A DNA stretch of 64,000 nucleotides from an uncultured Verrucomicrobiae bacterium. GTDB taxonomy: Bacteria; Verrucomicrobiota; Verrucomicrobiia; Palsa-1439. Numbering within the stretch: the first letter of the stretch is position 1; each line of letters starts with the position of its first letter. The stretch lies in contig CAWEWF010000002.1 of assembly GCA_963812605.1 (NCBI GenBank), positions 96,001-160,000 on the forward strand, written 5' to 3'. The position numbers and the translations under genes were made by a program. This document shows positions 25,095 to 28,000 of this stretch, one piece after another. A model generated the notes under the pieces. That model had not been told where the DNA came from and did no database searches. It worked only from the letters and a program-made list of their open reading frames with translations.

Positions 25095-28000
25095 TCAGAA
25101 GCCTATGATTTTCGGCGCTGCGGCAAGGGCCTCGGCCAATTTTTCAGGTTGCTTGCCACCGGCTTGGGCCAGATCAGGCTTGCCGCCGCCACCGCCACCG
25201 CAAATCTTCGCCAGTTCGCCGACGATCTTGCCGGCATTTTTGCCCTCTTTGACCAGGTCGGGTGTAACCATGCAAATAAGCGAAACCTTGCCTTCCGCCA
25301 CGCCACCCAAAACCACAATCCCGCTGGTCAGCTTCGGCCTGAGCGCGTTGACGATCGCCCGCAACAGATCGGCATTCGCATCGCCAAGATTACTCACGAG
25401 CAACCGGCCCTGCAATTTCGGCAGCAACTGCTCGGCCATGGCGGGCGCCTGCGCTTCCATCGCGGCCTGGCGTTGCTTGGCCAACTCTTTCTCCATCTCG
25501 CGCGCCCTGGCTTTCTCCGCCTCAGCCTTTTCCTGGTCGCCTTGCTTCGCAATAAATTCCTGGGCAAATTGCCCACAGACCGCTTCGACGCGACGAATCC
25601 CCGCCGCCACGGCCGATTCGCGCATGATCTTGAACAGGCCAATCTCGCCCGTGGTCTTCGTGTGCGTGCCGCCACAAAGTTCCATCGAAAACCCATCCAG
25701 CGCCTTGTCGTGTCCGCCAATCTGCACGATGCGGACGATATCGCCGTACTTGTCGCCAAAGAACTGCATGATATTCGGCTTCCCACGCACTTCCGCAAAA
25801 GGCATTTCAAACCAATACACGGGCAATGTTTCCTTGATCCGCTCGTTCACCAGCTTCTCAATGTCCGCGATCTGCTGGTCACTAAGTTTCTCGGGTTGGT
25901 TGAAATCAAAACGAAACCGGTCCGGCGCCACCAGCGACCCCTTCTGCCGCGCGTCCTTGCTCACGACCTCATGCAACGCCCAATGGAAAAGATGCGTGAC
26001 GGTATGGTGTCGCTGGATATTCGACCGTCGCGGCACATCCACTGCCGCACGGACTTTTTGGCCGACCTCCGGTAGCGCGAGCCTCTGGCTTGCGGTCGTT
26101 TGGCTTGCGGTCGTTGCCTCAGAGCGATGAACGTACACGTTCCCCTGTTTCTGCGTGTCGTGAACGACCGCAACCGGGACGGTCGCGTTACCCGGCGAAA
26201 AGATTAGCCCCGTATCCCCCACTTGACCGCCCATCTCCGCGTAGAACGGTGTCCGGTTGAGGATGACGTTGAAAGTCCTCTCCGCTCCTGGGGATACGGC
26301 TTCCACCACAGCTTCAACTTCGAGATTGTCATAACCAAGAAACTTCGTTGGCTCAACCTGCAGATTCTCGGTCGCAACGCTAATCACGGACTTCTTTTTT
26401 TCATGATCCTCGCGTGCCCGTTGCCGTTGCTCGTCCATCAATTTCTCGAAGCCAGCGGCATCAACGGTAAAACCTCGCTCTCGCGCAAGCAATTCCGTGA
26501 GATCGAGGGGGAATCCAAAGGTATCGTAGAGCACAAACGCCTCGTCACCACGAACCACGTTGTCGATGGGACGTTCTGGTTGCGGCATGCCCGGGGATTT
26601 CGGGCCATATGAGATGTCCACATATTTGTTAAAGTGCTCAATCCCGCGATCTAGTGTGCGGTTAAAGCTTTCCTCTTCTGCTTTAAGCAACGTCTCGATT
26701 TTTGCCTTATTGCGACGTAGTTCAGGAAATACTCCTCCAAAATTCTCCGCTACCACATTCACCAGTTTATAGAAGAATGGCTCGCGTAACCCGAGATTGC
26801 GTCCATAACGGACAGCGCGGCGGAGGATGCGGCGCAGGACGTAACCTCGACCCTCGTTCGAGGGCTGGATTCCATCAGCAATCGCGAAACTCAGGCAGCG
26901 GATGTGATCGGCAATGACGCGGAAAGCGATGTCGATTTTAATTTGTTCTTCTGATGGTGGCGCAAGCGTCCCTGCTTGCGGTTGTTCACTTGAGCCACCC
27001 GTTTGTCTGGCATCGATCACGACACCCAGCGTTTCCGTCGAGTGCCAGAACCATCGATATGCCTCCGGCCGTTCCGCCAATTGTTTCTTGACCGCGTTGT
27101 TCGCAATGTAATTCCACTTCTCTTCGTATTCCGCTTCATCGCGCACAATGCGGTCGTAGCTTTCGTGCTGCCAAACTGGACCAATCCACTGCCACTTCTT
27201 TTGAATCTGATTTGCCGTATATGACTTGATGCCGTGAAGCACCTCGCTCAGGGCGTGAAATCCCCTTTGCGCAACCGTCTGCGGGGAAGAAGCGTCGAGC
27301 GGAAGCGGCCACACCAGCAGATGAACGTGATCCGGCATCACCGTCACAGCGCGCAGGTCGTATTTACTCCCGTGCGAATGATGGCAGGCTTCCAACACAC
27401 AGTCGCGCATTTCGGGGGTCAATTCTCTCCGTTGATGCGTTCGAAATGTGACGAAATACACTGCACCAGGAGATTGCCAATGAGGAAGGCGGCGTTGGGA
27501 AACCGAGAATTGTTTGATGCCATCAATTGATTCGCAAGCAGGGACGCTTGCGCCACCCAAACCACCCGCAGGCAGCGTCCTGGTGTACTTCTTTCCGCTG
27601 AGCTCCTCCAGTTGGCGGAAGATCGGACTGAAGACATCGGTCTCGTAGTTGGAGATTCTTCCGGTGAAATCCTTGAAGCCGTTCGTGCATTGGATCATCG
27701 AACACACACGCTCGAAACCCATGCCGGTGTCCACGTGTTTCGCGGGCAATGGTTCAAATGTACCGTTGGGTAAGGCATTGAACTGAATGAACACGAGGTT
27801 CCATATCTCGATGCACAACGGGCTGCCGGAATTGACGAGCTTGGCGCCGCCGTCGCCGTTGAGAGTGAGGTCGAGGCTTATCTCGCTATTCGGTCCGCAA
27901 GGGCCGGTATCGGCCATCATCCAGAAATTATCTTTGCGGTTGCCGGGGACGATGTGGTCAGCGGGCAAATAGCGCAACCACAAGTCGCGCGACTCGAGGT

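Follow-up and report, generated by a model that had tools for sequence, protein, structure and literature searches.

A 64,000-nt stretch of DNA from an uncultured Verrucomicrobiae bacterium of the GTDB lineage Palsa-1439 (assembly GCA_963812605.1, contig CAWEWF010000002.1, positions 96,001 to 160,000; hereafter the window) contains an alaS gene, encoding alanyl-tRNA synthetase (AlaRS), whose open reading frame includes a second coding unit related to REP-associated tyrosine transposases (RAYT), a family named for repetitive extragenic palindromic (REP) sequences. We refer to the genome carrying the window as G000 and to the related genomes compared with it as G001, G006, G009, G012, G013 and so on. 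The alaS product scored 798.5 bits against TIGR00344, the alanine--tRNA ligase equivalog (cut-off 457), in two stretches, one on each side of the insert, and matched Pfam tRNA-synt_2c (E 8.7e-175) along with tRNA_SAD and DHHA1. The insert splits the AlaRS profile cleanly, with positions 1-263 before it and 262-537 after it in a single open frame. Its length is divisible by three, and the host frame runs without a stop across 201 codons. Flanking sequences in alaS read KKYTRTLPAGGL and SEEQIKIDIAFRVIADH; the preliminary description of this DNA had reported the 201-codon in-frame insert, and its coordinates and letters read exactly as given there. The insertion point corresponds to 257|258 of Aquifex AlaRS and, in the E. 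coli enzyme, falls in the interval from residue 259 to residue 279; in established AlaRS structures this is the turn between the catalytic and helical tRNA-recognition domains. This loop is normally short, as first supposed: the distance from the motif NYE to the motif ADH is 47-49 residues in 12 of 16 same-genus junctions versus 243-249 in the three that bear an insert. GC content across the insert (0.53-0.56) shows no break from its surroundings (0.51-0.58), and composition thus gives no sign of recent foreign origin.

Sequence comparison confirmed the insert as a predicted REP-associated tyrosine transposase. Searched alone, it scored 83.2 bits against the NCBIfam model of that name (NF047646, cut-off 80) over profile positions 3-145 of 146. 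An alignment of the insert with 47 relatives (alignment A1, 48 rows) gave a profile that matched E. coli TnpA-REP (4er8_A) with an E-value of 4.1e-11, and both the HUH motif and the tyrosine helix were aligned. These hidden Markov model searches bear out the original assignment to a RAYT-like HUH domain, as does the retention of the histidines of PDHVH and the tyrosine of YIANN, all of which are invariant in A1. The score against the IS200/IS605 equivalog NF033573 was 23.1 bits, below its cut-off of 55. Among 373 candidate proteins of 110-352 amino acids, 232 relatives were found at E <= 0.001, many of which carry the name REP-associated tyrosine transposase in their source annotation. Pfam hits of the alaS product at E <= 0.01 included no Hint or intein family. 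The insert begins with GGASV and ends with LAPP, and its sole fit to intein termini is the +1 residue, Ser497, in agreement with the earlier statement that intein ends are lacking. G000 holds one copy of the alaS-type RAYT.

A perfect 25-nt inverted repeat, with arms 100% complementary, brackets the insert, and each arm folds as a single-stranded DNA hairpin (-7.6 to -9.1 kcal/mol). The hairpin belongs to a family dispersed throughout the genome. The pattern 'GGTGG N7 GTCCCT N7' occurs 60 times in G000, 51 of the 60 with 7/7 Watson-Crick stem pairs, and stem variants are compensatory (at pair 2, AT in 37 and GC in 17). Allowing at most one mismatch, we counted 65 copies of this GGTGG REP, compared with 0 for a reversed-pattern control; a structure-aware scan returned 70 copies versus 2 in a shuffled genome. 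The master 25-mer of the family is present in 32 identical copies. GGTGG-family REPs are stop-free in all six frames. The insert is bounded by inverted hairpins of a dispersed REP family and is therefore a complete REPtron, consisting of a REP, a RAYT and an inverted REP. Four RAYT-like loci are present in G000, each flanked by a different inverted repeat, and the GGTGG family is found only at the one in alaS. The other three comprise a fusion to dtd, a free gene of 160 amino acids and a degenerate locus. The REP hairpin ends that make the insert a complete REPtron, the genome-wide REP family and the finding that alaS is one case of a large class (below) go beyond the preliminary description.

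Table 1. Positions of the features of the alaS locus, numbered from the first letter of the window.
Feature	Position	Strand	Remarks
alaS coding sequence with insert	25095..28442	(-)	1115 aa, ATG start, one open frame
Whole in-frame unit	26955..27557	(-)	603 nt, 201 codons, alaS residues 296-496
5' REP arm (gene orientation)	27533..27557	(-)	GGTGG foot, 7-bp stem CGCAAGC/GCTTGCG, GTCCCT loop; single-stranded DNA hairpin of -8.5 kcal/mol; translated GGASVPAC
RAYT (Y1/HUH) catalytic domain	27033..27518	(-)	AlaRS residues ~309-470; 227.8 bits with the alignment A1 profile
HUH motif H372-V-H374 of PDHVH	27321..27329	(-)	invariant columns of alignment A1
Catalytic Tyr, Y445 of YIANN	27108..27110	(-)	invariant column of alignment A1
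3' REP arm, inverted copy of 5' arm	26956..26980	(-)	translated (P)QAGTLAPP
Third REP in alaS	26169..26192	(-)	single, in frame near residue 750; encodes PGNATVPVAV, relatives GSAKVL
recA	28473-29549		directly upstream of alaS

The same arrangement recurs in relatives. An alaS match was obtained in 38 of 41 related genomes, two of which (G001 and G009, members of the same genus) likewise have the AlaRS profile broken at position 263 by an internal RAYT. The inserts of G001 and G009 are 69% and 49% identical to that of G000 at the amino acid level, open, in frame and carry a REP hairpin at their ends. The arms in G001 match the G000 hairpin at 24/25 and 25/25 positions and its RAYT core is 68% identical at the nucleotide level; the G009 insert is bounded on each side by a co-varied hairpin with a GTAG foot and also has an outer, decayed hairpin of the type seen in G000. 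Ratios of nonsynonymous to synonymous substitution (dN/dS) were 0.13-0.23 for the insert where computable, with dS saturated, and 0.07-0.09 for the N-terminal part of AlaRS. Judged from these ratios, the insert and the AlaRS flanks are under purifying selection. By its flanking motif, the same position (site A) is also filled in 12 further metagenome AlaRS (P0001-P0007 and P0009-P0013). Two side observations concern these relatives. The insert-bearing alaS of G001 (L018, G001:C51) changes frame about 770 codons in, giving 772 and then 352 amino acids, which is either an assembly error or a real break. In G009, three GTAG-foot REPs that share sequence and orientation are spaced about 520 nt apart (G009:C10:511723, 512245 and 512762).

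Empty sites outnumber filled ones. Sixteen same-genus junctions could be read, of which 3 were filled, 12 were clean and empty, and one, in G013, held a 26-residue REP-only insert free of RAYT sequence; the junction pattern did not match at 8 of 26 loci (G010a, G014, G020, G023, G024, G025, G033 and G039), which were not counted. The G013 insert (L011, G013:C13) is an in-frame hairpin with a 7-bp stem and a GTCTC loop at the same alaS site, and this hairpin itself forms a repeat family with 15 copies in G013 and 10 in G000. G040 has a 51-residue insert at the same position. These inserts in G013 and G040 mark the alaS site as permissive. An alaS tree (21 rows, 869 columns, insert columns removed; quick search supported by the SH-like approximate likelihood ratio test, SH-aLRT, only; rows G001, G003 and G010b partial, G010:C51 and G040 left out) paired each bearer with empty relatives: G000 with G006/G012 (SH-aLRT 99), G009 with G007 (99) and G001 with G016 (98). 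The three pairs of bearer and empty sister therefore require at least three changes. Identities of glycogen synthase (GlgA) to the G000 protein, 89% for G012 and 87% for G006, agree with the alaS tree in making these two the nearest kin. However, alaS is mosaic along its length: the best neighbour of G000 shifts from G006 to G001/G016 and then to G004, G014, G015 and G012, and codons 41-260 are closest to G001/G016. The pattern of presence may therefore reflect repeated gain, precise loss or transfer of filled alleles by recombination.

Copy number of the REP family differs sharply between G000 and its nearest kin. Compared with 65 GGTGG REPs in G000, G012 has 2 and G006 has 1, and both lack an alaS RAYT. 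The dominant GGTGG variant of G000 is rare elsewhere. A loop in another protein shows the same difference, in that the GlgA loop carries a REP in G000 and none in G012 or G006; REP-like sequence is present in this loop in several species and absent from G012, G006 and G015, and the G000 loop is a net 15 nt longer than that of G012, so it is not a simple 25-nt insertion. The excess of REPs in the RAYT-bearing genome over its closest relatives is a hint that the RAYT may be active.

Embedded RAYT domains are not confined to alaS. A search with the insert among 1224 candidate proteins of 613-1952 amino acids returned 134 hits at E <= 0.001. By precomputed Pfam domains, the 120 hits listed were hosted by ValRS-type class I synthetases (48), PurH (20), DUF1156 and other DNA methylases (20), AlaRS (14), IleRS-type enzymes (5), N6 methyltransferases (5), helicases (3) and ThrRS (1), with no clear class for 4. 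Within each host family the RAYT sits at one constant site; two AlaRS proteins, P0109 and P0113, carry the domain at a site other than site A. Words such as GGTGFQPV or GGTGVSPV before the domain, and GKMPVPP, RRDACPT or HRLETGAT after it, are by eye reverse-complement readings of one hairpin. In a tree of 236 domain rows, the host-gene label needed 27 changes versus 111 when shuffled; IleRS rows formed one clade, and ValRS needed 4 changes for 48 rows. The H-x-H motif and the tyrosine were kept in 117 of 120 embedded domains versus 115 of 116 free-standing ones, a count from which rows covering fewer than 110 profile positions or scoring below 60 bits were dropped and in which the similarity search favours conserved copies.

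Genomic sequences agree with the protein survey. Among the best 80 loci from species-representative genomes, 36 had the domain flanked on each side by an open stretch of 150 codons or more, and an exact inverted repeat of 12-30 nt bracketed the domain in 32 of these 36 embedded loci; the chance expectation is about 0.004 per locus, an arithmetic estimate and not the result of shuffling. All 24 embedded frames that were scanned encode known enzymes, comprising 6 AlaRS (at two sites), 5 RecG, 4 ThrRS, 3 PriA, 3 ValRS/class I synthetases, 2 PurH and 1 GcvP. Among 201 sampled Verrucomicrobiota genomes, 55 had a RAYT at E <= 1e-20, and 21 of the 106 RAYT matches (in 14 genomes) lay in open frames of at least 600 amino acids. 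From these sequences, embedding of RAYTs is a widespread and apparently undescribed habit in Verrucomicrobia and Planctomycetes. Some members have features of their own. A second RAYT-hosting AlaRS site, near Pfam profile position 375-384 (L056, L057, L067, L105, L111, P0109 and P0113), is used in Chthoniobacterales and other Verrucomicrobiota; many genomes of this genus carry about 65 inserted residues at that position that contain no RAYT. P0008, an IleRS-type protein of 1682 amino acids, has two RAYT domains (residues 256-419 and 933-1081). P0034, P0052, P0077 and P0020 contain ValRS or methylase domains and are named 'REP-associated tyrosine transposase' by their sources.

Further REPs and a second RAYT lie within reading frames of G000. 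The third REP in alaS belongs to a sister family with a GTAG foot that also flanks the G009 alaS RAYT and has 16 copies in G000 at no more than 3 mismatches. A second RAYT lies in frame at the C-terminus of D-aminoacyl-tRNA deacylase (dtd; G000:C6:70666-71775, L002:721-1833), with no start codon between the parts and its own perfect 23-nt flanking repeat. Among 18 genomes of the genus, 3 (G000, G013 and G008) have this fusion as an open frame, and 14 have a dtd stop near codon 149. Single in-frame GGTGG REPs are present in PurL (C1:371861-374446), Mfd (C6:63656-66976), a DUF255 protein (C4:215738-218011), the CCA-adding enzyme (C5:379568-381067), glycogen synthase (C14:665557-667038) and an XdhC-MobA protein (C4:94777-96249). 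By longest spanning frame, 61% of REPs versus 76% of random sites fell in frames of at least 250 amino acids, a weak statistic given that none of the six frames of the REP contains a stop. A Pfam scan of 10 REP-spanning frames gave 7 above cut-off, and the REP lay between or inside domains in 6 of those. The REP of the PriA frame is probably upstream of the true start; frames L035 and L036 had no Pfam hit and L033 only a sub-threshold one.

Downstream of alaS lies serS, and the recA-alaS-serS locus is chromosomal. Two single-base shifts, separated by about 90 nt, break serS into three frames (window 24600-24730, (-)), and a second class II synthetase core, which lies at G000:C14:703031-703664, is likewise split between two frames. 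These frameshifts look like either assembly indel errors or real decay.

We propose that a frame-neutral, stop-free REPtron is translated as a domain within its host protein and that the resulting AlaRS works, a reading to which we assign a probability of roughly 0.7 from the sequences compared here. The ribosome would read through the insert to give a chimera of about 122 kDa, in which the REP-encoded stretches rich in Gly, Ala, Ser and Pro would serve as linkers and the RAYT would fold as an extra AlaRS domain. The chimera is expected to charge tRNA-Ala because it is the only AlaRS found: G000 (15 contigs, genome 90% complete) has a single alaS locus, and no second intact copy of the kind that the preliminary description had considered came to light. 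The embedded RAYT may still be an active single-strand REP nuclease/transferase serving the GGTGG-foot REP family. The essential host gene would shield the insert, in that only precise loss would be viable, which would account for both its persistence and the clean empty sites. A conserved host gene would also supply expression, and homology for passage of the insert between species by recombination. The earlier claim that the synthetase is made only as a fusion gains indirect support from the single alaS, a frame kept in three species, purifying selection and the lack of an Rfam intron, and stops short of proof.

Several observations weigh against this reading. Family membership is marginal by Pfam Y1_Tnp (PF01797), against which the insert alone scored 23.7 bits with a cut-off of 23 and the whole protein 18.9, below it. 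The hairpin variant that flanks the alaS insert (CGCAAGC) is a minor one, accounting for 3 of 70 copies. GGTGG REPs occur in genomes with no alaS RAYT (25 in G013, 13 in G007), and the pairs G009/G007 and G001/G016 show no REP burst. Across 11 AlaRS-RAYT fusions, the distances of host and RAYT were uncorrelated (r = 0.12, Mantel p ~0.2), and simple co-descent of the two is not supported by these sequences. The assembly has frameshifts in genes near alaS, and a second alaS beyond the 90% that is complete is possible. In reads, the contigs that crossed a junction extended 22 nt (X2 record 9) and 26 nt (X4 record 14) outside the insert, short of the 31-nt rule.

The best of the alternatives, which we nonetheless consider unlikely, is that the RAYT is a fossil or exapted passenger that no longer acts on DNA. 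The REPs would then be relics or be served by another enzyme, and the domain would be kept since imprecise deletion from alaS is lethal, or would have gained a role in AlaRS. The REPs that persist in G013 and G007, the minor status of the flanking hairpin and the other RAYT-like genes of G000 all fit such a fate. Those other RAYT loci, however, have their own, different flanking repeats, and the alaS hairpin ends are far better conserved than the coding sequence between them. Moreover, position alone would not preserve an active site, whereas H-x-H and the tyrosine are kept in nearly all embedded domains, in unrelated hosts, and the dN/dS values of the insert are those of a constrained sequence.

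It is less probable still that the insert is removed from DNA by precise single-strand excision as in IS200/IS605 elements, leaving intact alaS in many cells and the fusion in a minority or in passing. Excision would suit the patchy presence, the clean empty sites in close relatives and the three or more changes on the alaS tree. Both ends of the unit are intact, and precise excision is an established property of Y1 transposases such as those of IS608 and ISDra2 (see also PMC6006769). In four DNA runs of one soil-metagenome study, no joint that skips the insert was seen among Logan contigs, where 14-25% of words were represented and most bins uncovered, coverage far too thin to count. The filled form was nevertheless recovered in three assemblies and 12 further metagenome proteins, and the maintained frame, with selection on both linkers and domain, argues that it is translated.

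Production of separate proteins, with the RAYT made by internal initiation or proteolysis and AlaRS working as two pieces or after cleavage, appears very improbable. In its favour, the 25 or so codons that precede the RAYT domain in G000, read by eye, offer a single in-frame ATG, GTG or TTG, the TTG of L295 just before the 5' arm, and the linkers are rich in Gly, Ala, Ser and Pro. The same span in G001 and G009 has, by eye, no in-frame ATG, GTG or TTG at all, and the N-terminal part of AlaRS has no stop. The frame is open for 1115 codons, and the initial report that the insert has neither a stop nor an ATG of its own stands. Consensus scans, which would miss other signals that the host may use, found 0 promoter-like sites in 26700-28600 versus 1.0 expected and no terminator-like signal at the insert; Rfam introns and ribozymes gave 0 matches at E <= 1 in 26400-28100. 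That alaS here is an assembly chimera or a silent pseudogene copy is scarcely credible, since the frameshifts in serS and another class II synthetase gene and the 90% completeness of the genome stand against the same architecture in the independently assembled G001 and G009 and in many metagenome proteins, an unbroken frame, AlaRS flanks at a dN/dS of 0.07-0.09, a single alaS and a chromosomal neighbourhood.

RAYT genes flanked by inverted REPs are reportedly the REPtrons of Nunvar (2010) and of Bertels and Rainey (2011). The alaS unit resembles REPtrons, among them that of E. coli TnpA-REP (4ER8), in its protein family, in a coding sequence bordered by inverted REPs with a conserved 5' foot and in the dispersed REP family that accompanies it. 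Known RAYTs, in contrast, are free-standing intergenic genes with their own start and stop, and the alaS insert has neither and is internal to an essential protein. RAYTs, REPtrons and RAYT-REP co-evolution are established (PMC8266576, PMC5581495), and RAYTs are presented there as a model of a domesticated, single-copy, free-standing bacterial transposase; the former paper describes processing of single-stranded REPs by free RAYTs in vitro, with cleavage and strand transfer.

Other systems share some features of the alaS unit. Inteins are likewise in-frame selfish inserts in essential conserved genes, patchy in distribution, fixed at one site per host gene and expressed by the host; the genes that carry embedded RAYTs encode synthetases, helicases and replication proteins. 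Unlike inteins, the alaS insert has no Hint fold, no initial Cys, Ser or Thr and no final His-Asn, and it occupies a variable loop, not a conserved active-site motif. Nothing suggests splicing, and the mature protein presumably retains the insert. Palindromic in-frame repeats of functional genes include intragenic REPs and the Rickettsia palindromic elements (Di Nocera et al. 2013, PMC3733652, and Ogata 2000 as cited there). Di Nocera et al. report intragenic in-frame REPs in tRNA synthetase and repair genes, most numerous in the verrucomicrobium Opitutus terrae. G000 has such REPs too, in PurL, Mfd, GlgA, the CCA enzyme and alaS. Those elements are short and non-coding and add 8-30 residues, whereas the alaS insert is an autonomous unit that includes a transposase. 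IS200/IS605 elements and IStrons also combine a Y1 HUH transposase with hairpin ends and single-strand chemistry, and IStrons spare the host gene; the alaS unit differs in being single copy per genome, with no TnpB and no Rfam intron or ribozyme match. Full-text searches limited to the main articles of open-access PMC and bioRxiv turned up no paper that describes an in-frame RAYT within a host gene. What appears to be new is a RAYT that would be translated within a host gene; RAYTs, REPtrons and intragenic REPs are known.

Collectively, these data suggest a wider proposal, which we hold tentatively and at somewhat less than even odds. REP-RAYT-REP units of the Planctomycetes-Verrucomicrobia-Chlamydiae group would form a distinct mobile class of frame-neutral, stop-free elements, translated as internal domains of essential enzymes as splicing-free counterparts of inteins. 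Each chimera would be an active REP transposase, and the host gene would provide expression, protection from deletion and homology for homing into the empty alleles of other species.

The sequences indicate that a large branch of RAYTs lives without expression signals of its own inside aminoacyl-tRNA synthetases, PurH, PriA, RecG, GcvP and DNA methylases. Annotation pipelines are misled by this habit, in that the embedded domain gives some ValRS proteins the name 'REP-associated tyrosine transposase'. RAYT surveys have filtered such long proteins out as errors; one phylogenomic survey treated 'unexpectedly long' RAYT proteins as either fusions or errors and set them aside (PMC6006769). Should the chimeras prove active, a transposase could depend for its expression and upkeep wholly on being a passenger domain in an essential protein, a second and splicing-free solution to the problem that inteins solve. 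Active chimeras would also offer a natural test of the long-standing question of how RAYTs act on REPs in vivo, with 65 REPs in G000 set beside 1-2 in its RAYT-free sisters.

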